This document shows positions 8,050 through 54,361 of a stretch of 64,000 nucleotides of DNA, one piece after another. The notes beneath the pieces were generated by a model that did not search any database, was not told the DNA's origin, and saw only the letters and a list, made by a program, of their open reading frames with translations. How positions within the stretch are numbered: the stretch's first letter is position 1; each line of letters starts with the position of its first letter. This stretch comes from Acidobacteriota bacterium. Its GTDB lineage: Bacteria; Acidobacteriota; Thermoanaerobaculia; Multivoradales; Multivoraceae. Both the position numbers and the translations under genes were made by a program. The DNA lies in assembly GCA_011523565.1 (NCBI GenBank), contig WTGL01000159.1, forward strand, positions 2,101-66,100, given 5' to 3'.

Positions 8050-8490
8050 CTAGAATGGAATGTCGTCGTCGGCGCCGCCGGGGTCGAAGCCCGCGTCGTG
8101 GGGAGCGGGCTGGGCCGGCGCTGCCTGACTGCGGCCGTGGCCGGGCTGGCCGCCGCTGTCGCCGCGGCCGCCGAGCATCTGGAAGTTGCGGCACACGATC
8201 TCGGTGCGGTAGCGCTTCTGGCCGGTCTGCTGATCGTCCCAGGAACGGGTCTGGAGCCGGCCCTCGACCGAGACCAGCTTGCCCCTGGTCAGGTACTGGC
8301 CGGCGACCTCGGCCTGGCGGCCCCAGCAGACGATGTAGTGCCACTCCGTCTCCTCCTGCCGGTTGCCGTCGCGGTCCGTCCAGCGCCGGTTCGTGGCGAC
8401 GCTGAAGTTGGCGACCGTCTGGCCGGATTGGGTCGTGCGGAGTTCCGGGTCGCGGCCGAGATGGCCGATCAGGATCACATGGTTCAGCAT
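8050..8490 (-). CDS. ssb: single-stranded DNA-binding protein
   Basis: OB fold ([14 protein letters not shown]) and acidic C-terminal tail DDDIPF. Start at the internal ATG, 146 aa. Confidence 0.9.
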
Positions 8491-8692
8491 TTTCGGGTGA
8501 GTCGTCCTTTCTGATGGATTGGTAGGAGCTTCGGTTTCGTCACGGCGGGGAGCGAAGGGCGGCGCGAGCGGCATCACGCCCCTCGCCTTCTTGTACGGAA
8601 CTCGGGCCGGGGATGTCGCCCGGGCGCCGCGCCGGTTGATCGTAGCGGCTGGAGCGGCGCTTCGGGTGGGGCGCCGGCGTTATCGTTTGGCC

Positions 8693-9139
8693 GTGCGCCT
8701 GGTCGTGCAGCGGGTGAGTTCGGCGTCGGTCACGGTCGACGGCCGGACCGTGGGTCGAATCGATGGTGGTCTAGTCGTCCTGGCGGGAGTGGAAGCCGGC
8801 GACGGCGAGGATCAGGTGGCGGCTGCGGCCTCCAGGTTGAGCCGCCTCCGGCTGTTCGACGACGAGCGGGGAAGGATGAACCTGGACATCCGTCAGGCGG
8901 GAGGTTCGGTCCTGCTCGTGTCGCAGTTCACCCTCGCCGCCTCGACGCGGAAGGGAAGACGGCCGTCCTTTGACCGGGCGGCGCGTCCGGAGGTGGCCGA
9001 GCCGTTGCTGGCCGGCCTGCGCAGGCGGCTGGAAGAGGCGGGGCTGACCGTCGAAGAGGGCCGCTTCGGAGCCCGCATGCGCGTGGAACTCGCCAACGAC
9101 GGGCCGGTGACCTTCGTGCTGGAGTTCAGAGGTTCTTGA
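8693..9139 (+). CDS. dtd: D-aminoacyl-tRNA deacylase
   Basis: RLVVQRV, SQFTL and GPVT motifs. GTG start chosen at 8693, 148 aa. Confidence 0.85.
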   Translation: MRLVVQRVSSASVTVDGRTVGRIDGGLVVLAGVEAGDGEDQVAAAASRLSRLRLFDDERGRMNLDIRQAGGSVLLVSQFTLAASTRKGRRPSFDRAARPEVAEPLLAGLRRRLEEAGLTVEEGRFGARMRVELANDGPVTFVLEFRGS

Positions 9140-43086: not shown

Positions 43087-43162
43087 GCGGGCATAACTCA
43101 GTTGGTAGAGTGCCAGCTTCCCAAGCTGGATGTCGCGGGTTCGAGTCCCGTTGCCCGCTCCA
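43087..43162 (+). tRNA. tRNA-Gly (anticodon CCC), CCA encoded
   Basis: Acceptor GCGGGCA/TGCCCGC, anticodon loop TTCCCAA. Confidence 0.85.
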
Positions 43163-43215: not shown

Positions 43216-43683
43216 ATGGCGTTCTTCAAGAAGGATCTCGACGAGCCGGCGGCTGAGGCCGCCCTGACGCCCCCGGGGAAGGTGAGGTCGACATCGGCCG
43301 CGCCGGCCCGTACGTACGTGGCGGCCGGCTCTCGCATCGAAGGCACCATCTCCGGCGAAACGGAGGTCCTGGTTGACGGCTCCCTGGATGGGTCCGTGCA
43401 GCTCGACGGGCGATTCGTTCTCGGTCGCAGAGGCCGCATCCAGGGCAACGTAACGGCCCACTCGGTGCAGGTTTCCGGCAAGGTGAAGGGCAATGTCCGG
43501 GCGACGGAGAAGATCGAGGTGGCGACCTCCGGATCGATCGAGGGCGATCTGGCGGCGCCCCTGGTCTCGATCGCCGAAGGAGGTGTCTGCAACGGCCGGA
43601 TCGAGATGAGCGGCACGCTGGCGATCGGCTCCCCTTCCGGTTCGCGCTTCGGAGGTGAAGTCGCCGAGACGGGCGGCTCCTAG
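43216..43683 (+). CDS. bactofilin (polymer-forming cytoskeletal protein, DUF583)
   Basis: Repeated beta-helical GxVxG motifs (IEGTISGETEVLVDGSLDGSVQ...). Confidence 0.75.
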   Translation: MAFFKKDLDEPAAEAALTPPGKVRSTSAAPARTYVAAGSRIEGTISGETEVLVDGSLDGSVQLDGRFVLGRRGRIQGNVTAHSVQVSGKVKGNVRATEKIEVATSGSIEGDLAAPLVSIAEGGVCNGRIEMSGTLAIGSPSGSRFGGEVAETGGS

Positions 43684-44711
43684 CGCCCGGTTTCGTCGGT
43701 GGGGAGGCTCGACGCCAGGTCGCAGGCGGTACAGAGCGCCCGTAGATCGCCCGGCGCCGGTGCGGTGGAGCTGACCGGAGGCGCGCCGGCGATCGAGGGG
43801 AGCGTCAGCTTCCTGGCGTGCAACGCTGGGCGTGGGAATTCCCGCAGGGGTCGTCGCAGGGCCGGCGCCAGACCGCGCCAGCGATCTTCGCCGTAGGCCG
43901 GATCGCCGGCCAGCGGGTGGCCGATCGCTTTGCAGTGCACGCGGATCTGGTGAGTTCTCCCGGTGAGGAGTTCGACTTCCAGCAGCGAGATGCCGGCGGC
44001 GGTCCCGAGTACGCGGTAGCGGGTCGTTGCGGGTCGGCCGCCCCGGGCTTCGGGCACGACGGCCATGCGGGTGCGGACCGTCGGGTGGCGGCCGATGGGT
44101 AGCTCGACTGTTCCATTGGGGGGATCCGGTCGACCGTAGACGACCGCCAGGTAGATCTTGTCCACCTCCCGCTCGGCGAATGCCTGGCTCAGCCTCCGGT
44201 ACGCCGCGTCGGTGCGGGCGATGGCAAGGACACCACTCGTACCCCGATCCAGCCGGTGGACGATGCCGGGCCGCTCTGGCGATCCGACGCTCGCGATCTC
44301 AGGGTAGTGGTGGAGAAGGCGATTCACGAGCGTGCCGCTACGGACACCGGAGCCGGGATGCACGATCAGCCCCGCCGGCTTGTCGATCACCAAGAGGTGT
44401 TCATCCTGGTGAAGCACTCGGATCGGCTCGGCCTCGGGTTGGAGAACCGTGGGGGTAGGGGCTGGAACCTCGTAGTCGATCCGCTCGTCGCCGCGCAGCA
44501 GGTAGGAGGGCTTGGCCGCCGTTCCGTTTACGGTCGCGAAACCGTTGCGCAGCAGGCTCTGAACCTGGTTGCGGGTCAGATCCAGCGTCTTCGCCAGATA
44601 GCGGTCGATCCGCTCGCCCGTCGCGGACGCCGGCGCCCTGAAGTGGCGTCGCGAAGTGCCGGATTTGTGAGCGTCCCGGGATCGCGGCGTGCCGCGGTCG
44701 ATCGAGTTCAC
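43680..44711 (-). CDS. RluA-family 23S rRNA pseudouridine synthase (RluD-like)
   Basis: S4 domain plus HRLDRGTSGVL catalytic motif. Confidence 0.8.
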   Translation of the reverse strand: MNSIDRGTPRSRDAHKSGTSRRHFRAPASATGERIDRYLAKTLDLTRNQVQSLLRNGFATVNGTAAKPSYLLRGDERIDYEVPAPTPTVLQPEAEPIRVLHQDEHLLVIDKPAGLIVHPGSGVRSGTLVNRLLHHYPEIASVGSPERPGIVHRLDRGTSGVLAIARTDAAYRRLSQAFAEREVDKIYLAVVYGRPDPPNGTVELPIGRHPTVRTRMAVVPEARGGRPATTRYRVLGTAAGISLLEVELLTGRTHQIRVHCKAIGHPLAGDPAYGEDRWRGLAPALRRPLREFPRPALHARKLTLPSIAGAPPVSSTAPAPGDLRALCTACDLASSLPTDETGR

Positions 44712-45238
44712 TTCGACGTGCGGGCCTGGGCCAAGCCGTGGCGCCGCGCTCGTCCCGCGCTCGACCGCCGCCGTACCTGCGGCCCGAAGCTGTGCGCCAG
44801 CATCAGCACGATGCCAACGGTGACTCCGCTGTCAGCGACATTGAAGGCCGGCCAGTGGTAGGTGCCGGCGTAGACATCCAGGAAGTCGGTTACGGCGCGC
44901 AAGAGAATCCGGTCGGCCAGGTTGCCGACGGCCCCGCCGAGTACCAGGGCGAGGGAGAGCAGGAGGAGGGGCTCGCGTTCGGATGTACTGCGGAAGTACA
45001 GCGAGACGACGATCAGCGCGGCGAACCCGAGGGCAGTAAGCAGCAACGTGCCCGCGAACTCACGGTCGGCCGGAAACAGCCCGAAGGCAATGCCCGTGTT
45101 CTGTACGTGAACCAGATTGAAGATGCCCGGCAGAACGGGCAGCCGTTCGTGGACTTCGAGGCTGGCTTCGATCCACAGCTTGGTCCACTGATCGAGCGCC
45201 AGCACGAAGGCGGAGACGACGAGGAATCTCGCTTTCAC
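44708..45238 (-). CDS. lspA: lipoprotein signal peptidase II
   Basis: LspA family (FNLVHVQNTGIAFG). Confidence 0.9.
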   Translation of the reverse strand: MKARFLVVSAFVLALDQWTKLWIEASLEVHERLPVLPGIFNLVHVQNTGIAFGLFPADREFAGTLLLTALGFAALIVVSLYFRSTSEREPLLLLSLALVLGGAVGNLADRILLRAVTDFLDVYAGTYHWPAFNVADSGVTVGIVLMLAHSFGPQVRRRSSAGRARRHGLAQARTSK

Positions 45239-45864
45239 GGGAGTCGGAGCGTACCAGCAGCCAGTGCCCAGGCCGCGGCGAGAGCGGCCGCCGTATCGGG
45301 TTCGGCAAAGGCGCGGATCGCGGCGACGCCATGCGCGCCGGCGCGGGCCAGATCGGGTGTGTTGGAGGGATCGACGCCGCCGACCGCAAGGATCGGGAGG
45401 GGGCCCTGCGCGGCCCGCTTCAGGCGTTCGATGCCTTGGGGCGCGCCAAACCGGAGCTTCTCGGGTGAGGCGAAAACAGGGCCGAAGAGGGCGTAGTCGG
45501 CATCGGCAACGGCGGCATCTTCGAGTTCGCGCCGGTTATGCGTCGAAACGCCGAGCAGCAGGCCCCGGTCCTGGATCGCCGGGGCGGCTTCGGTCCACGG
45601 CTGGTCCGACCCCAGGTGGACGCCGTCGGCCCGGCAGTCGACTGCCACGTTGAGGCTGCCGTTGACGATGAGAAGGCCGGAAACCGCCTCTCGGAGGGTG
45701 CGGCCAATCTCCGTCAGTGCAGTGGAATCGAGGTCTTTCTCGCGGAGCTGAACGGCGGTTCCGGCCGGCAGCGAGCGGGCCCAGTGTTCCAATCCGGATG
45801 CTCCGCCGCAGAGGCGCCGGTCGCTGATGGCGAGCAGCGTGGGGACGTTGGGCTTTCGCCTCAT
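45235..45864 (-). CDS. thiE: thiamine-phosphate synthase
   Basis: ThiE TIM-barrel motifs. Confidence 0.85.
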   Translation of the reverse strand: MRRKPNVPTLLAISDRRLCGGASGLEHWARSLPAGTAVQLREKDLDSTALTEIGRTLREAVSGLLIVNGSLNVAVDCRADGVHLGSDQPWTEAAPAIQDRGLLLGVSTHNRRELEDAAVADADYALFGPVFASPEKLRFGAPQGIERLKRAAQGPLPILAVGGVDPSNTPDLARAGAHGVAAIRAFAEPDTAAALAAAWALAAGTLRLP

Positions 45865-46163
45865 CCAGCTCGATCAGGTTCCGGAATCGCCGCTTTCGGG
45901 TCCGTTCGACGCCTGCTGAGGAGGATGCGTTCAAGGTCGTGAATGCCCCAGATGAGATGAACGAACCCGAACCCGGTGACCGCGCCGCGGACCCACGGCA
46001 GCATGAGGAAGGCGCCGAGATGCGCCTGCGATAGCGCCGACCTGGTCACCAGGACGTTCCAGAACTCTCGCCATGGAGCGATGACCAGGAAGAGTCCGGC
46101 CTCCACGCAATAGATCACGAAGAGAACGCGGAGCAGGCTGGACCAGGCTACACCCCAGCGCAT
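45861..46163 (-). CDS. hypothetical small membrane protein
   Basis: 100 aa with 2-3 TM helices. Confidence 0.45.
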   Translation of the reverse strand: MRWGVAWSSLLRVLFVIYCVEAGLFLVIAPWREFWNVLVTRSALSQAHLGAFLMLPWVRGAVTGFGFVHLIWGIHDLERILLSRRRTDPKAAIPEPDRAG

Positions 46164-46241
46164 GAGTGCATTCTAGGACTCAGCGCCCGGAATCTGCACG
46201 AGAGGGTCGATTTCGGGCGGTGAATCCTGGGGAGATGAGTC

Positions 46242-48551
46242 CTAGGGAGGAGTGCGGCCTCTGTCGCTGGGGGGCGGCGCCGACGGCGACGAGGATCTGG
46301 GCGGAGGGGAGTAGCTGGAAGGCCTCGAGGGCGGTGTGTAGCTGCGGGACGGCGGCGACGAGCGTGGCGACGAAGCGCGTGGCGTCGACCGCGTCCGGGT
46401 GGGGGGCGTGGAGCGTGTGCGCGTGGGTGTCGACCTCGGCGTGGAAGCCCTCGGTGGCGTGGAGCGCGTGCGAGTGGGCGTCGACTTCGGCGTGGACGCC
46501 CTCGGTGGCGTGGAGCGTGTGCGCGTGGGTGTCGACCTCGGCGTGGACGCCCTCGGTGGCGTGGAGCGCGTGCGAGTGGGCGTCGACTTCGGCGTGGAAG
46601 CCCTCGGTGGCGTGGAGCGCGTGCGAGTGGGCGTCGATCTCGGCGTGGAAGCCCTCGGCGGGGTCGAGCGGGTCCGGGTGGGTGTCGACTTGGGCGCGGA
46701 TGTCCGTGTCGGCACGGAACGGGTTCGGCTAGGTGTTGCCGTTCGCGGCGCGTTGACTCGTTCGGGCCGTCTCGATGGAGGATTCGCCGTGCGAGGGGCC
46801 GCCGGCACCGCGTCCCGGCCGCGGATCGCGTCGAGCACGCGGCGGGCGGGCGTCGGTCTCCGGGTGCGGTCGAGCACGTTTCCGCTCGCCCTCGGAGCCG
46901 CCACACGAGCCGGCGCCTTGTCGTCTGCGCCCTCGGAGTCTCGGGCGGTCGTCGTTGACGTTGGGGCCGCCGTCAGACCTCCGGAACTGACGCGTACGGC
47001 CTTCGGGGCTTCGGTTCGCCGAGCGTCGTCGAGGGACCTCCGCCGAAGCGTGACGCCCGTACCGGACTCCGTACCGGCGCCCGCTGTCGGCGAGTTGGAG
47101 CGCGTCCGGACGCCGCCGGCCGTTACGCCAACCAGACCGGATCGGCCGGCTACGGGGGGACCGCCCACGACTCGCACCGTCCCTTGCTGGTCGGGTGTTC
47201 GCGTCAGCTTGGCCTTGAGAGTCTCGTTCAGGTCCGTCCTTCGCGCGACGAAATCCGTGACATCGGGGAGTTCGCTTTCGGAAAGGCCGCGGCGCTTGCC
47301 GAGGAGGACCTGCTGTACCGCCTCGGGATTCCGCCAGTTTCGGTAGTCGATGCCGTTCGTGTCCGTCGTGATGATGCCGCGTGCGAGCTTCGGATGACGC
47401 TGGCGCAGGGAGCGGCCGTAGGTGTAACCGCGGCCGTAGCCCAGGTAGCCTGACGGGCAGAAGATCCAGGTGTTGAAGGGATCCCAGAAGCCCCCTGCCC
47501 ATCCGTAGAGTCCCCAACGGAGGCCGAAGCCCCGGCCGAGGTAGTAGCGGTGGTAGTAGCCGCGGGGGATCCACCCCACATACGACGGCCCCCAGTACCA
47601 GTACACGTGGCTCGGAGCGTAGATGGAGCTTGGGAACCAGAGCCAACCGTAGCCGGGATACAGGTTCCAGCTGCCGTAGTGATAGGTGAGGGGACCCCAG
47701 GGGTCGCGCGCGACCCAGTACAGTCCGGCGGGGGTATGCGTCCAGCGGCCTCGACTGTAGGGCTGCCAATCGTCCTCAACCGCGGGCTTCCAGGCCCGGC
47801 CATCCTCAACCTCCACCCATTGGCCGTGGTCGGTCAGGCTGGACCCGTAGCCGTCGACATCGACGGCGGCGTATGCCGCAAGCCGGGTGCGGTGAGCCCC
47901 TACCCATTCATCCAGGGCCAGAGCGGCGGCGCCGGCGCCGCTCTGAAGTTCGATCCACGGGTCGTCCAGACCTTGCACCAGAAGGGCTTCGCCATCGCGG
48001 ACGATCACCGAACCGCGCTGGGTGACGACCTCCGCGAAGCCGTCCAGCACAGCGATTTCCGCCCAGCGGTCGCCGTCGCTTTCGACCTGGTAGCGGCCGC
48101 CCTGTTTGGCGTAGACCCGGGCGTTCGTCGTGTCGATTGCCGGCAGCTCCCAGTCCAGCAGGTTGTTCGGGACCTCGAGGCTCAACCGGCCCCGGTGCAG
48201 GACGTAGAGGGAGTCCATGTCGTCCGCGTCCGGTGAGCCGGCGATCTGGGCGAGAGTGACCTCGCTGTCGTGGTCGAGAGCGAGAATCGAGCGGTCCGAC
48301 ATCAGCACGGCCAGCCGGCCGTACGGATTGGTCCAGATTCGGTCTCCGCGCAGGACCGGAAGGTGAATCTCCAAGTCGCTCTGCGCTCCGGAACGTGCCG
48401 CGAACAGGGTCGCGTCTCCGTCCAACGCACCGACGAGGCTGTAGACGCCCTCGAGTTGTCCTTGTTCCTGGGGTGCCGTCTGAGCGTGGGTGGCGGTCGC
48501 CACCCCTGCCGCGAGGACGATCAGTAGGGCTTGCGGGAGGGTACGTCTCAT
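46242..48551 (-). CDS. secreted FecR-domain protein with aromatic-rich central region and R/S/T/P-rich tandem-repeat C-terminus
   Basis: Signal peptide MRRTLPQALLIVLAAGVATATHAQ. FecR-like segment. G/Y/W-rich stretch. About 6 copies of a 17-aa repeat TPTRTRSTPPRASTP[RK]S. Confidence 0.65.
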   Translation of the reverse strand: MRRTLPQALLIVLAAGVATATHAQTAPQEQGQLEGVYSLVGALDGDATLFAARSGAQSDLEIHLPVLRGDRIWTNPYGRLAVLMSDRSILALDHDSEVTLAQIAGSPDADDMDSLYVLHRGRLSLEVPNNLLDWELPAIDTTNARVYAKQGGRYQVESDGDRWAEIAVLDGFAEVVTQRGSVIVRDGEALLVQGLDDPWIELQSGAGAAALALDEWVGAHRTRLAAYAAVDVDGYGSSLTDHGQWVEVEDGRAWKPAVEDDWQPYSRGRWTHTPAGLYWVARDPWGPLTYHYGSWNLYPGYGWLWFPSSIYAPSHVYWYWGPSYVGWIPRGYYHRYYLGRGFGLRWGLYGWAGGFWDPFNTWIFCPSGYLGYGRGYTYGRSLRQRHPKLARGIITTDTNGIDYRNWRNPEAVQQVLLGKRRGLSESELPDVTDFVARRTDLNETLKAKLTRTPDQQGTVRVVGGPPVAGRSGLVGVTAGGVRTRSNSPTAGAGTESGTGVTLRRRSLDDARRTEAPKAVRVSSGGLTAAPTSTTTARDSEGADDKAPARVAAPRASGNVLDRTRRPTPARRVLDAIRGRDAVPAAPRTANPPSRRPERVNAPRTATPSRTRSVPTRTSAPKSTPTRTRSTPPRASTPRSTPTRTRSTPPRASTPKSTPTRTRSTPPRASTPRSTPTRTRSTPPRASTPKSTPTRTRSTPPRASTPRSTPTRTRSTPPTRTRSTPRASSPRSSPPSRSYTPPSRPSSYSPPPRSSSPSAPPPSDRGRTPP
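46405..46700. repeat. 51-nt tandem repeat (~5.7 copies) inside the FecR-domain gene
   Basis: Unit GGCGTGGAGCGYGTGCGMGTGGGYGTCGACYTCGGCGTGGAMGCCCTCGGT is visible directly in the sequence. It also produces spurious plus-strand ORFs. Confidence 0.8.
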
Positions 48552-48760
48552 CTCTCTACCTCCAACGGACTCGGAGTCTGCACGCTACCACCGGGAGTCG
48601 AGCAAACCGCGTGCCAGATCCGCGGAGACGTCGGAGCGTGTCGACCTCGGAGGAACCGTAGCGGGAACGGCACAGTGGTGTCTACTCGCGGGGACGGTGG
48701 CGTCATCAGGCGTCTGCCTTCCCGTATGATCGGCGCGGCTCCACGCCGCGTAGGGAGTGC

Positions 48761-49320: not shown

Positions 49321-49830
49321 CTGCCGCTACTGCGGGCGGCCGTTCTGGTGGCGCTGGGCCTGGCAGCTTGCGACAGTGGGGGCGGAAGCCCGACGGCGCC
49401 GGGCTCTCGGGCGCCGCGGGGTATCAGCTTCCTGGCGGGGCAGGTCGGGGACGAGTCGATCGGCCTGCGCGGCACGGCGCTGGGGGCGACGCTCGAGCTC
49501 GAGATCTACGCCGCCGGCGTCCAGGATCTATACGGCCTGGGCTTTGAACTCCTGTTCCCCGCCAACCTGCTGCGCTACGAGGGGGTGGACGACAGCGTGT
49601 TCCCGAGCCTCGAGGCCCGGGAATCCGCGCCGGGCCGGCTTGTCGTCGGCGCAACCCATCTCGGTTCGGTCGCAGGTCTCGACGGCGGCGGTTCGGTGGC
49701 CATCGTCCGCTTCACGGCATTCGCCAACGGCAGCGGAAGCCTGGACTTCAGCGCCCAGGAGGCCTTTGACAGGTTCGGCGATCGTCTCGCCCTGAATTGG
49801 GTGGGGGGTTCGGTCCAAGTGGACCTCTGA
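49321..49830 (+). CDS. cohesin-like domain lipoprotein (apparent CTG or ATT start)
   Basis: Signal peptide RLPLLRAAVLVALGLAAC is encoded upstream of the first GTG at 49348. CTG at 49321 and ATT at 49315 are the only candidate starts. Confidence 0.5.
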   Translation: MPLLRAAVLVALGLAACDSGGGSPTAPGSRAPRGISFLAGQVGDESIGLRGTALGATLELEIYAAGVQDLYGLGFELLFPANLLRYEGVDDSVFPSLEARESAPGRLVVGATHLGSVAGLDGGGSVAIVRFTAFANGSGSLDFSAQEAFDRFGDRLALNWVGGSVQVDL

Positions 49831-52055: not shown

Positions 52056-52139
52056 GCCGGAGTGGCGGAACGGCAGACGCAGGGGACTTAAAATCCCCGG
52101 CCCCTAGTGGGCGTGTGGGTTCGAATCCCACCTCCGGCA
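52056..52139 (+). tRNA. tRNA-Leu (anticodon TAA), type II
   Basis: Acceptor GCCGGAG/CTCCGGC, anticodon loop CTTAAAA, long variable arm. CCA not contiguous. Confidence 0.85.
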
Positions 52140-52187
52140 CGCCACGTAGATTGGTACCCGTGGAAACTGGTACTATCCCGGTCCGAA

Positions 52188-52433
52188 ATGAATCGGACAC
52201 TGGCCGAGTTGGCGGAATCGGGCGACGACCGGCTGGTCGAGATCGTCGGCGTGGCCGGTGACGGCCCCGTCAGTTGGCGGCTGCGCGAGATCGGTTTCTG
52301 CCGGGGAGCCGCGGTGCGGTTCGTTCGGCGGGCGCCCCTGGGCGATCCGTCGATGTATGAGCTGCACGGCGCCATCCTCAGCCTGCGCCGCAGCGAGGCG
52401 AGTCGAATCCGCGTCGGGCCGGGCAGCTCATGA
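52188..52433 (+). CDS. feoA: ferrous iron transport protein A
   Basis: FeoA SH3-like domain, 81 aa. Confidence 0.8.
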   Translation: MNRTLAELAESGDDRLVEIVGVAGDGPVSWRLREIGFCRGAAVRFVRRAPLGDPSMYELHGAILSLRRSEASRIRVGPGSS

Positions 52434-54361
52434 CGGAGCTGGTCCGGCTGGGGACGGCAGAGGCCTCCGGGGAACCTCGGCGGTTCGCCATCCTCGGGGC
52501 GCCGAACTCGGGCAAGACGACGTTGTTCAACGCGCTCACCGGGCACCGGGCGAAGGCCGGGAACTACCCGGGAGTCACGGTCGACCGGCGCGAAGGCGAC
52601 CTGCATCGCCGCTTCTCGGACGAACCCGTTCGGCTCATCGATCTTCCCGGCGTGTACAGCTTGGAACCCCAATCGGAGGACGAAGCGGTAGCCGTGCGCG
52701 TTCTGCGCGGAGAGTTCGGCGAACCGCCGCCGGACGGCGTGGTCGTCGTAGTGGACGCCACCACGATCGAGCGCGCCTTGCCACTCGTGGCGGAGGCCGC
52801 GGCCCTGGGTCTCCCCCTCTGCATCGCTCTGACCATGGTCGATGAGCTGAAGGCGCGGCACGGCGAAATCGACGTCAGCGCACTGATGGCCGTCCTCGGG
52901 GTGCCGGTGCTGGGCGTGGTCGGCAACCGCGGCCTCGGCATCGATGACCTCGGCGCGCTCCTGGCCGGGTCCCGGAACAACTGGACGCCGTCTCCGGACT
53001 TGAAGGAGGCCGCGGTGTCGGGCACGCCGGAGGCGAGGTTCAACTGGACGTACGGGGTGCTGGGGCGATGTCGCCGCGAGGTGCCACGAGCCGATCACTG
53101 GAGCCGGCGACTGGACCGGTTTCTGCTCCATCCGATCTTCGGGCCGGCGGTCTTTCTGACCTTCGTCGCCCTCTTCTTCCAGGCGATCTTCACCTGGGCA
53201 ACGCCGGCGATGGACCTGCTCTCGGGCCTGATGGACGGTCTCGCGGATCGGCTGCTCGTCGCTCTGCCGGACACCCTGGTGACGCGGCTGCTCGCCGACG
53301 GGGTGGTTCGGGGCGTCGGTGCGGTGATCGTCTTCCTGCCCCAGATCGTGCTCCTGTTCACGGTCATCCTGTTTCTCGAGGGGTGCGGCTACATGGCGCG
53401 CGCAGCGTTCGTCGTGGACCGGATGATGGGTTGGGTGGGCCTGGAGGGCCGCTGCTTCCTCGCTCTGCTCTCTTCGTACGCCTGTGCCGTTCCGGGCATC
53501 ATGGCGACCCGGACGATTCCTTCGGAGCGGGATCGACTCACTACCATCCTGGTCGCTCCCTTCGCCACCTGCTCGGCCCGGTTGCCGGTGTACACGCTGC
53601 TCATCGCGGCGTTCATTCCCGCCGAACGGGTGTTCGGACCGTTCACCTGGCAGGGTTTTACCCTGGGCGGCCTGTACGTCCTGGGAACGGCGACCGCTCT
53701 CCTTTCGGCCGCCGTCCTGAAACGGGGCCTGATGCGGGGCGCCTCGCTGCCGTTCTACCTCGAGCTGCCGCCGTTCCGCCTGCCGCGGCCAAGTGACATA
53801 TTGCTCGGCGTCTGGGACCGTGCACGGATGTTCCTGCGGCGTGCCGGCACGATCATCCTGAGCGTCAGCATCGTCCTCTGGTTCCTGCTCAATCTGCCGC
53901 GGAGGGCCGCCGATCCGCAGCTCGGCGACGCGGCGAACCAGCAGGCGATCCTAGAGGGCAGCTACGCGGCTTCGGTCGGCAGATTCCTGGAGCCGGTGTT
54001 CGCCCCCATGGACTTCGACTGGCGCATCAACGTCGGTCTGGTGGCTTCCCAGGCGGCCCGAGAGGTCATGGTCGCCACACTCGCACAGATCTACGCTCAC
54101 GAAGGCGAGGCCAGGGAGGGCCTGGGCGGTGTTCTGGCCGGTGGCGGTGGGCGCGGCGGCGAACCGGTGCTGTCCCGCGCTTCGGCACTTGCCCTGCTCG
54201 TCTACTTCGCGTTCGCCATGCAGTGCATGTCGACCCTGGTCGTGATCCGTCGCGAGACGGGGAAGTGGCGATGGCCGGCCTTCACGTTCATCTACATGAC
54301 CGGCCTGGGCTGGCTCGGGGCCTGGGTCACCTTCCAACTGGCGACGGCGGCAGGAGCCTGA
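52430..54361 (+). CDS. feoB: ferrous iron transport protein B
   Basis: G-protein domain (GAPNSGKTTLFNALTG) plus polytopic membrane domain. ATGA overlap with feoA. Confidence 0.95.
   Translation: MTELVRLGTAEASGEPRRFAILGAPNSGKTTLFNALTGHRAKAGNYPGVTVDRREGDLHRRFSDEPVRLIDLPGVYSLEPQSEDEAVAVRVLRGEFGEPPPDGVVVVVDATTIERALPLVAEAAALGLPLCIALTMVDELKARHGEIDVSALMAVLGVPVLGVVGNRGLGIDDLGALLAGSRNNWTPSPDLKEAAVSGTPEARFNWTYGVLGRCRREVPRADHWSRRLDRFLLHPIFGPAVFLTFVALFFQAIFTWATPAMDLLSGLMDGLADRLLVALPDTLVTRLLADGVVRGVGAVIVFLPQIVLLFTVILFLEGCGYMARAAFVVDRMMGWVGLEGRCFLALLSSYACAVPGIMATRTIPSERDRLTTILVAPFATCSARLPVYTLLIAAFIPAERVFGPFTWQGFTLGGLYVLGTATALLSAAVLKRGLMRGASLPFYLELPPFRLPRPSDILLGVWDRARMFLRRAGTIILSVSIVLWFLLNLPRRAADPQLGDAANQQAILEGSYAASVGRFLEPVFAPMDFDWRINVGLVASQAAREVMVATLAQIYAHEGEAREGLGGVLAGGGGRGGEPVLSRASALALLVYFAFAMQCMSTLVVIRRETGKWRWPAFTFIYMTGLGWLGAWVTFQLATAAGA

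Follow-up and report, generated by a model that had tools for sequence, protein, structure and literature searches.

The subject of this report is a gene on the minus strand of a 64,000-nucleotide (nt) stretch of DNA, called the window below, from an Acidobacteriota bacterium of the family Multivoraceae, class Thermoanaerobaculia (assembly GCA_011523565.1, contig WTGL01000159.1, positions 2,101 to 66,100). The complete gene was taken from the list of open reading frames (ORFs). It occupies positions 46242..48551 (-) of the window, starts with ATG and encodes a 769-amino-acid (aa) protein composed of a FecR-like (CJM) domain, a DUF6600 domain and a cationic tail. A Shine-Dalgarno sequence, GGAGG, can be read at 48559..48563 (-), 7 nt 5' of the ATG. 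The G+C content at third codon positions (GC3) is 0.79-0.81, as in the adjoining genes, and the in-frame GC3 of the tail is 0.79. An identical 769-aa protein is encoded on 12 public contigs, which stem from JGI, ENA and NCBI.

The N-terminus, MRRTLPQALLIVLAAGVATATHA followed by Q, is the sole hydrophobic segment of the protein in a hydropathy scan; the second-ranking 19-aa window, with a score of 1.2, falls within the beta domain. The segment has the build of a signal peptide of the signal peptidase I (SPase I) type (aa 1-23; 48483..48551 (-)), with MRR, a hydrophobic core, a cleavage site between THA and Q, and without a lipobox. An N-terminal hydrophobic signal is present in 213 of 220 family members and a lipobox-like string in only seven of the 220, so that the signal peptide proposed in a preliminary description of the window, made from the sequence alone, is borne out. 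Beyond this segment, the scan of the whole protein revealed no transmembrane (TM) helix. Pfam yielded just two matches in the protein, DUF6600 and FecR, and searches of NCBIfam, PHROGs and PDB sequences yielded nothing. With high confidence, the product is a Sec-exported, SPase-I-processed, soluble envelope protein that is neither a lipoprotein nor membrane-anchored. With equally high confidence, it consists of a rigid head of ~420 aa followed by an intrinsically disordered, Pro-rich, net-positive tail, which measures 125-374 aa in the family. A lipoprotein processed by the adjoining LspA was rejected: the protein has no lipobox L-[AS]-[GA]-C and no Cys before aa 365, and the family lacks a lipobox as well. 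This means that proximity to lspA does not imply a lipoprotein. A histone-like role in the cytoplasm, in which the S/T-P-K/R tail would bind DNA, was likewise rejected in view of the conserved signal peptide.

The head begins with an all-beta FecR- or CJM-like domain at aa ~35-205 (47937..48449 (-)), which was delimited using Pfam, an AlphaFold2 (AF2) model, Foldseek and relatives. The match to FecR (PF04773) spans aa 70-171; with 22.5 bits (E 1.6e-4), it narrowly misses the gathering cutoff of 24 bits. Among relatives, 40 of 41 match PF04773 at E<=0.01, the best of them at 1.1e-8, and a Gemmatimonadota homolog scores 42 bits. The AF2 model of aa 1-470, built on a 74-sequence alignment, is mostly beta and confident from ~35 to ~455, with a mean predicted local distance difference test score (pLDDT) of 86.2 and a predicted template modelling score (pTM) of 0.84; the FecR-like domain exceeds a pLDDT of 90. 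In a Foldseek search against PDB, the N-terminal domain matched 4m0h and 4m0n (BDI_1681, a putative anti-sigma factor) as well as 6ovk_R (PupR) with E-values of 2e-7 to 2e-6 and a probability of 1.0. These matches comprise ~145 columns of targets of ~213 residues at a root-mean-square deviation (rmsd) of 2.3-3.0 A, and the matched region is periplasmic in BDI_1681 as in PupR. Given the structural matches and the PF04773 matches of nearly all relatives, the FecR assignment is right at the fold level. The FecR-like domain of the preliminary description therefore stands: the fold behind the sub-threshold score was confirmed by the structure search and by relatives. A connecting alpha-helix, assigned by DSSP on the AF2 model (aa 208-228; 47868..47930 (-)), links the two beta domains. 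In the model, the head of aa 1-470 is a single rigid unit in which the FecR/CJM beta domain is packed against the DUF6600 module. A further likeness concerns the first ~75 head residues. Residues 39-114 match PDB entry 5ix9 with a Foldseek E-value of 8e-3 (61 columns, rmsd 1.2 A) and a profile E-value of 0.099. 5IX9 is the N-terminal 'cell surface anchoring' domain, region I, of MpIBP, the ice-binding RTX adhesin of Marinomonas (PMC5550230, bioRxiv 10.1101/198937), where region I is a retention module of RTX adhesins. The match is geometrically tight but weak, short and marginal, and it is probably due to the general likeness of beta-sandwiches; the protein studied here is neither an RTX adhesin nor a substrate of a type I secretion system.

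Sigma regulators of cell-surface signalling are defined by an N-terminal cytoplasmic anti-sigma domain (PMC7186176). Their other hallmarks, apart from the CJM fold, are a single TM helix that separates the cytoplasmic from the periplasmic part, a C-terminal STN subdomain that acts jointly with CJM in transducer binding, and a neighbouring gene for an ECF sigma factor and/or a TonB-dependent transducer. With the FecR/PupR regulators (6OVK, 4M0H/4M0N), the protein shares the twisted all-beta CJM/FecR fold and FecR sequence motifs. Here, however, four of the five features that define the regulator class are missing and only the CJM fold is present. There is no anti-sigma domain, as Pfam gave only FecR and DUF6600 and the signal peptide runs straight into the beta domain. 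A TM helix is lacking. Neither STN nor DUF4974 was matched in Pfam, even at E<=10 on aa 230-470. No sigma factor of the extracytoplasmic function (ECF) type or any other type and no TonB-dependent receptor is found among the called, Pfam-annotated genes within ~8 kb on either side, and likewise in relatives. What follows the CJM-like domain instead is DUF6600 and then a disordered tail. On these grounds an anti-sigma or cell-surface signalling role was rejected, in accordance with the earlier remark that this is not a classical FecR anti-sigma context.

The second part of the head matches DUF6600 (PF20245) at aa 238-331 (47559..47840 (-)) with 76.6 bits (E 1.8e-21), passing the gathering score of 27 bits, and all 41 relatives tested match it as well. 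It is built from four Trp-rich beta-hairpins, as indicated by Pfam, AF2 strands and invariant W, G and P columns. Across 41-74 relatives, down to ~31% identity over the whole protein (~35% in the head), 13 Trp are invariant: W216 just upstream, W245, W254, W262, W270, W279, W285, W295, W303, W305, W318, W327 and W362. Many Gly, Pro and Tyr columns of the module are invariant, too. Modelled alone with AF2, aa 230-455 reach a pLDDT of 90.3 and a pTM of 0.89 and form four G-x-W...G-x-x-W-x-P hairpins, more strands and short helices. The Pfam model spans only the first ~94 of ~220 conserved module residues. It is followed by a folded extension at aa 332-455 (47187..47558 (-)), recognized by AF2 and by the invariant columns G347, G350, G354, W362, F364, G392, D397, F434 and R437. 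This extension comprises aromatic/Gly strands and then a helical part with RGIITTDT and ELPDVTxFVAR, at a pLDDT of ~90, and residues 332-470 belong to no Pfam family, even at E<=10. For the DUF6600 fold, Foldseek found no match (best PDB E 2.8, best BFVD E 1.4), and sequence and profile searches of PDB gave nothing significant, with no profile match under E 0.06. The preliminary description had quoted an aromatic stretch, located at aa ~301-358, as a low-complexity block. The stretch is present, but it is not of low complexity: it is DUF6600 plus the conserved extension outside the Pfam model, and it is confidently folded. A low-complexity or prion-like segment was rejected on account of the position-specific invariance across two phyla and the pLDDT of 90.

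The head is followed by the disordered polycationic tail, aa 471-769 (46245..47141 (-)), defined by its composition and by a like tail in all 97 members analysed. Its ~300 residues contain 18% P, 18% R, 18% T and 16% S, with ~21% Arg/Lys altogether, and carry a net charge of about +47; the repeat region consists of 31% T, 23% P and 17% S. Tandem Repeats Finder (TRF) delimits an array at 46405..46700 (-) with a period of 51 nt, 5.8 copies, 88% matches and a score of 445. It encodes five perfect 17-aa units, TPTRTRSTPPRASTP[R/K]S, at aa 623-707 (46431-46685 (-)), as also seen in the unit table and in the alleles. A degenerate unit (aa 606-622) precedes them and a truncated unit follows from aa 708. 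Thus, the 51-nt repeats encoding 17-aa units that had been noted before were recovered by TRF at the same coordinates. In the tail, Pfam detected no family or domain and hence no recognized sorting domain (CTD of the type IX secretion system, PEP-CTERM), autotransporter or RTX module. The 1-kb bin 46001-47000 shows the strongest GC skew of the window (+0.195), because the coding strand of the tail is C-rich (ACN, CCN, CGC and TCN codons; G+C content at second codon positions, GC2, of 0.97 in the repeats). Two long overlapping ORFs, 46148-46906 (-) and 46399-47346 (+), were rejected as compositional artefacts.

Among relatives, the tails of all 97 full-length proteins are 125-374 aa long and net positive (median +19, minimum +3), with ~18% Pro and ~9% hydrophobic residues. 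Many soil relatives have polyampholytic tails with ~22% R+K, 16% D+E and 23% P. The tail of the clade studied here is unusually cationic, acid-poor and S/T-rich (+48 compared to the median of +19) and has its own 17-aa unit. The units are lineage-specific: PRSATPRSA and APQTRQPVNR occur in other Acidobacteriota, SGGSSRSGGAVRR and RPAPRPQARPSS in Gemmatimonadota, and the marine clade has the 17-aa consensus P-x-R-T/V-R-S-x-P-P-R-x-S-T-P-K/R-S. Thus, composition and charge of the tail are conserved across two phyla, its sequence is not. Within the five units, pairwise comparison revealed 44 synonymous and 8 non-synonymous nucleotide differences, and all 8 exchange Arg and Lys at position 16. A 16-17-aa motif, P-x-R-[TVL]-R-S-x-P...R-x-[ST]-x-P, is kept in relatives whose heads are ~62-70% identical. 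Two islands are more constant. One is RRPTPARRVLDAIRGRD at aa ~564-580 (46812..46862 (-)), with the pattern RRPTPxRRVLDAIRxRD, whose RRVLDxIR-like motif is found in 37 of 97 relatives, among them some with only ~40% identity in the head; it may possibly be a short binding helix. The other one is a C-terminal [RK]-x-P-P motif. Because the tail is found in all 97 members, is always net positive and Pro-rich, and shows 44 synonymous against 8 non-synonymous differences between units, it is a selected feature.

The length of the array varies. Within clusters of 90% identity, protein lengths differ by multiples of 17 aa. Three proteins with two units (P0253), five units (P0001, identical to the window protein) and seven units (P0256) are 100% identical over the 622-aa N-terminal and the 62-aa C-terminal part. 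Their genes show no mismatch in the other 2,055 nt and 0-1 mismatches in 2.8 kb of flanks. In the 2-unit allele, sequence between units 2 and 5 is cleanly deleted in unit register; the 7-unit allele corresponds to a duplication of a 102-nt R/K double unit. Further pairs identical outside the array have 5 and 3, 6 and 8, or 6 and 5 units, and two chromosome-level metagenome-assembled genomes (MAGs) of 5.26 and 4.92 Mb encode proteins (P0008, P0009) with 98.6% identity, set apart by one array indel of 68 aa (4 units). At the level of these alleles, the locus behaves as an in-frame variable number of tandem repeats (VNTR). This strain comparison, in which alleles with near-identical flanks differ by whole units, substantiates the earlier guess that the repeat number is likely hypervariable.

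That the array or its length is an artefact of assembly, by expansion or collapse, would be the most trivial explanation. The 2-unit allele and one 5-unit copy come from k141-named, probably short-read assemblies (MEGAHIT-style in the case of the 2-unit allele), the 7-unit allele contains an exact repeat of 152 nt, longer than 150-nt reads, and is less secure for this reason, and some relatives have frameshifted or N-filled tails (P0018, P0026, L064). For the window allele an artefact was rejected: its longest exact self-repeat is 50 nt, so it can be resolved by 150-nt reads and k=141 graphs, and the 12 contigs are concordant. Moreover, every relative has an array, including the chromosome-level MAGs of which two are separated by the clean 4-unit indel. 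For the 2-unit and 7-unit alleles, both known from metagenome assemblies, an assembly error is still conceivable. As an explanation of the array, an artefact is extremely improbable. The tails of P0018, P0025 and P0026 are read as frameshifted translations, e.g. the Arg-rich 'PGYARRREVRRPRRRLP' in P0018, and in L064 a run of N lies inside the array (8400-8760). Evidently, GC-rich arrays are a recurrent source of errors in MAG assembly and annotation.

The family is wide-spread, which the preliminary description had missed: exactly this architecture is already catalogued. A word-indexed protein search returned 145 close homologs with the same domains, most of 650-790 aa, from Thermoanaerobaculia, Holophagales and other Acidobacteriota MAGs; their sources, where they name the protein, call it 'DUF6600 domain-containing protein', 'FecR family protein' or 'hypothetical protein'. 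In a scan with one genome per species, at least 584 species genomes carry a relative, and the best 80 are Thermoanaerobaculia and Gemmatimonadota. When the DUF6600 core was searched exhaustively with HMMER, 6,786 representative clusters passed E<=1e-3, of which 179 also passed E<=1e-30. In all of the top 150, fragments aside, the domain lies at aa ~230-300 of a ~650-1000-aa protein. Head identity amounts to 80-85% in Ca. Multivorans and 93% in Plut_88883, a coral-associated MAG labelled Vicinamibacteraceae; Gemmatimonadota relatives, including Ca. Palauibacter, are 34-40% identical. The window matches a 1.02-Mb JGI metagenome contig, and its most likely source is an uncultured marine bacterium of the Ca. 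Multivorans type (Ca. Multivoradales). Isolate names suggest that the closest MAGs come from sponge or coral hosts. No plasmid-borne annotated relatives and no PHROGs family were found, and a literature search yielded no publication on DUF6600, PF20245 or Ca. Multivorans. In comparison with the DUF6600/FecR proteins of Thermoanaerobaculia and Gemmatimonadota MAGs, domain order, size (mostly ~650-800 aa), signal peptide and kind of tail are the same, head identity ranges from 35 to 93%, and nothing essential differs. The protein is a straightforward, ordinary member of a catalogued, functionally uncharacterized family.

Downstream of the gene, four genes point in the same direction. A predicted two-TM protein of 100 aa is encoded at 45861..46163 (-), 78 nt 3' of the gene (ORF list). 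It could be assigned to none of the families in Pfam, NCBIfam and PHROG, and all relatives found are close ones. A ThiE-like (TMP-TENI) gene follows at 45235-45864 (-), with 130.8 bits in Pfam and a score below the NCBIfam thiE equivalog cutoffs, then lspA at 44708-45238 (-) (TIGR00077, 103 bits at a cutoff of 74), and a gene for an RluA-family, RluD-like pseudouridine synthase at 43680-44711 (-) (Pfam and NCBIfam). The four are joined to one another by 4-nt overlaps. Upstream, def is located divergently on the opposite strand. Conservation was counted over acidobacterial loci with enough flanking sequence and head identities of 35% to 85%. In 46 of 49 loci, lspA lies downstream on the same strand, and the same number holds for rluD; the thiE-like gene is present in 41 of 49 and the small two-TM ORF in 36 of 49, and def is divergent upstream in 64 of 66. 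The co-directional, tightly spaced downstream genes of the preliminary description are thus confirmed and conserved in acidobacterial loci. The two-TM ORF is missing from a 'Holophagales'-labelled subclade of ~70% identity (L012-L019, L021, L023, L024), which rules it out as an obligatory partner of the DUF6600 protein. A second gene copy lies outside the block in at least one acidobacterial MAG (L062). In all 11 Gemmatimonadota loci these neighbours are absent, and the surroundings are mixed, with a peroxiredoxin, a sulfatase, a tricorn-like protease, PPK2, a radical SAM protein and one LolA-like gene. A functional partner was accordingly not accepted from context, as the Thermoanaerobaculia block is housekeeping, the Gemmatimonadota neighbours are mixed, and none is shared. 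The block is a class-level housekeeping arrangement, which argues for a core, probably constitutively expressed gene and reveals no mechanistic partner. Spacing, overlaps and the absence of a terminator-like site make co-transcription with the downstream genes plausible.

Several observations concern the surroundings of the gene. A 10-bp inverted repeat, CUAGGACUCA...UGAGUCCUAG, extends from the stop codon across the 78-nt gap (46164-46260 (-)); as a canonical terminator it was rejected (folding z = -1.65, no U-tract). At 46221-46249, TRF reports a near-repeat of 15 nt. The gene at 43216-43683 (+) codes for a bactofilin (PF04519 in the identical locus L001); it is convergent with rluD and overlaps its end by 4 nt; usually it is convergent after rluD, and it is kept there in many Thermoanaerobaculia loci. 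A tRNA-Gly(CCC) gene (43087-43162 (+)) is situated just upstream of it. Between def and cysS, a 160-aa ORF at 49348-49830 (+) starts with VALGLAAC..., has a lipobox-like signal and probably encodes a lipoprotein. It is kept at the same position in most Thermoanaerobaculia loci with 33-86% identity; Cohesin (PF00963) is matched weakly by one relative, and the window copy matches no Pfam family. A FeoA/FeoB ferrous-iron transporter pair at 52107-54361 (+) adjoins tRNA-Leu(TAA) at 52056-52140 (+), and upstream of it lie UPF0102 (YraN-like) and cysS, all in the same conserved syntenic block. In one Thermoanaerobaculaceae genome only, a gene for a 694-aa glycosyltransferase (PF03901, GT-C) is inserted between the thiE-like gene and rluD on the opposite strand (L005, 9344-11428; the contig is that of L059). 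Speculatively, this insertion bears on glycosylation of the tail.

The working model that we prefer, at a chance slightly short of even, is an exported binding head combined with a polycationic tether or spacer of tunable length. Its architecture is secure, its ligand and location are inferred. The head would bind an envelope ligand, either protein or glycan. The CJM fold, a periplasmic protein-interaction scaffold in sigma regulators, might provide protein contacts, and the 13 invariant Trp may form surfaces on which a glycan or polymer stacks against aromatic rings. The tail would serve as a flexible tether or spacer in electrostatic contact with anionic polymers of envelope or matrix. Unit-register recombination between the 51-nt repeats could add or remove units of 17 residues and +4 charge each, generate strain-level alleles and in this way tune reach and charge of the tail. 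The position ahead of the small membrane ORF, thiE, lspA and rluD would suggest constitutive expression along with envelope-maturation genes, with no mechanistic link, and no signal would be sent to a sigma factor. A functional analogue of such a spacer is found in TonB, which has a periplasmic Pro-rich segment with Glu-Pro and Lys-Pro repeats. By analogy, both proteins carry a long, Pro-rich, charged, non-globular segment on a globular domain, and the tails of the soil relatives are alike in composition. In contrast to TonB, neither a TM anchor nor TonB_C (no Pfam match) is present here, the globular part is N-terminal and the spacer C-terminal, and the tail of this clade is almost purely cationic and S/T-rich. 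Several points weigh against the tether model. The literature search found neither an experiment nor a publication for any family member, and whether the protein is periplasmic or at the surface, and what its head and tail bind, is pure conjecture. Sec export of a +47 tail is energetically unfavourable, which is unusual and not prohibitive. The polyampholytic tails of many soil relatives mean that binding of a polycation to a polyanion generalizes poorly. No partner gene is conserved across phyla, as evident from the 0 of 11 Gemmatimonadota loci, and co-transcription is presumed from gene spacing; a scan around the gene found neither promoter- nor terminator-like sites.

Instead of a tether inside the envelope, the tail could form part of a surface-exposed or released mucin-like coat or adhesin, located outside the cell and possibly O-glycosylated. 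It would attach to polyanions of the sponge or coral matrix or offer phages and grazers a variable target or decoy, which would account for the repeat polymorphism. Pro, Thr and Ser dominate in the Pro/Thr/Ser (PTS) tandem-repeat domains of mucins, in Pro/Thr linkers and in the wall-spanning repeats of bacterial surface proteins. The composition of the repeat region resembles that of mucin PTS domains, alleles that are identical except for the number of in-frame units are characteristic of surface proteins exposed to diversifying pressure, the extreme +48 S/T-rich tail is confined to a marine clade that, from its isolate names, is apparently host-associated, and one relative has the GT-C-type glycosyltransferase in the block. 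However, the tail is one-fifth Arg/Lys and has neither a cell-wall anchor nor a sorting signal: no signal for secretion beyond Sec was found, and Pfam detects no sorting, autotransporter or RTX module. In addition, conservation of the family is no weaker in MAGs from soil and sediment, whose tails are quite different, and the glycosyltransferase was inserted in a single genome. A coat or adhesin is therefore rather unlikely. It is improbable that only the head is functional and the tail is tolerated low-complexity junk, which grows and shrinks neutrally by replication slippage in a GC-rich genome. Turnover of the units, the unconserved sequence between lineages and the freely varying copy number fit such drift, yet a 125-374-aa tail, always net positive and Pro-rich, in 97 of 97 members of two phyla does not, nor do 44 synonymous against 8 conservative R/K differences, a P-x-R-[TVL]-R-S-x-P motif that lasts to heads of ~62% identity, and the two islands RRVLDxIR and [RK]xPP. 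A signalling part played by the head is quite improbable: the CJM-like domain would dock on a TonB-dependent transducer or another sensor and modulate an ECF-sigma pathway encoded elsewhere. The structural match to the PupR CCSSD and BDI_1681 is real, and the CJM subdomain of PupR helps to bind the NTSD of the transducer, but neither PupR subdomain binds the NTSD alone (PMC7186176). Furthermore, anti-sigma domain, TM helix and STN are missing, neither a sigma factor nor a TonB-dependent receptor is encoded among the called genes within ~8 kb, and from a soluble protein in the periplasm no route leads to the cytoplasm.

No surprising mechanism has been demonstrated for the family, and there is no bearing on a long-standing open question. 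The FecR label of these proteins should not be taken as 'anti-sigma factor'. The DUF6600 module, about twice as long as its Pfam model, confidently folded and without a solved counterpart, is a reasonable target for structural genomics. The tail clearly combines conservation of composition with VNTR behaviour at the strain level, and its array is a potential strain marker in sponge and coral metagenomes. A bolder proposal, which we regard as distinctly unlikely in its entirety, sees in the family an unrecognized core envelope component of Thermoanaerobaculia and Gemmatimonadota: the Trp module would be a truly new fold that binds an envelope polymer, the cationic and possibly glycosylated tail would be a tunable tether or coat, and its polymorphism would be selected by host matrix, phage or grazers in sponge and coral lineages. 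Acidobacteriota and Gemmatimonadota are abundant, mostly uncultured phyla with poorly known envelope biology, and the family appears to be near-universal, single-copy and syntenic across a whole class of the former and is also present in the latter.

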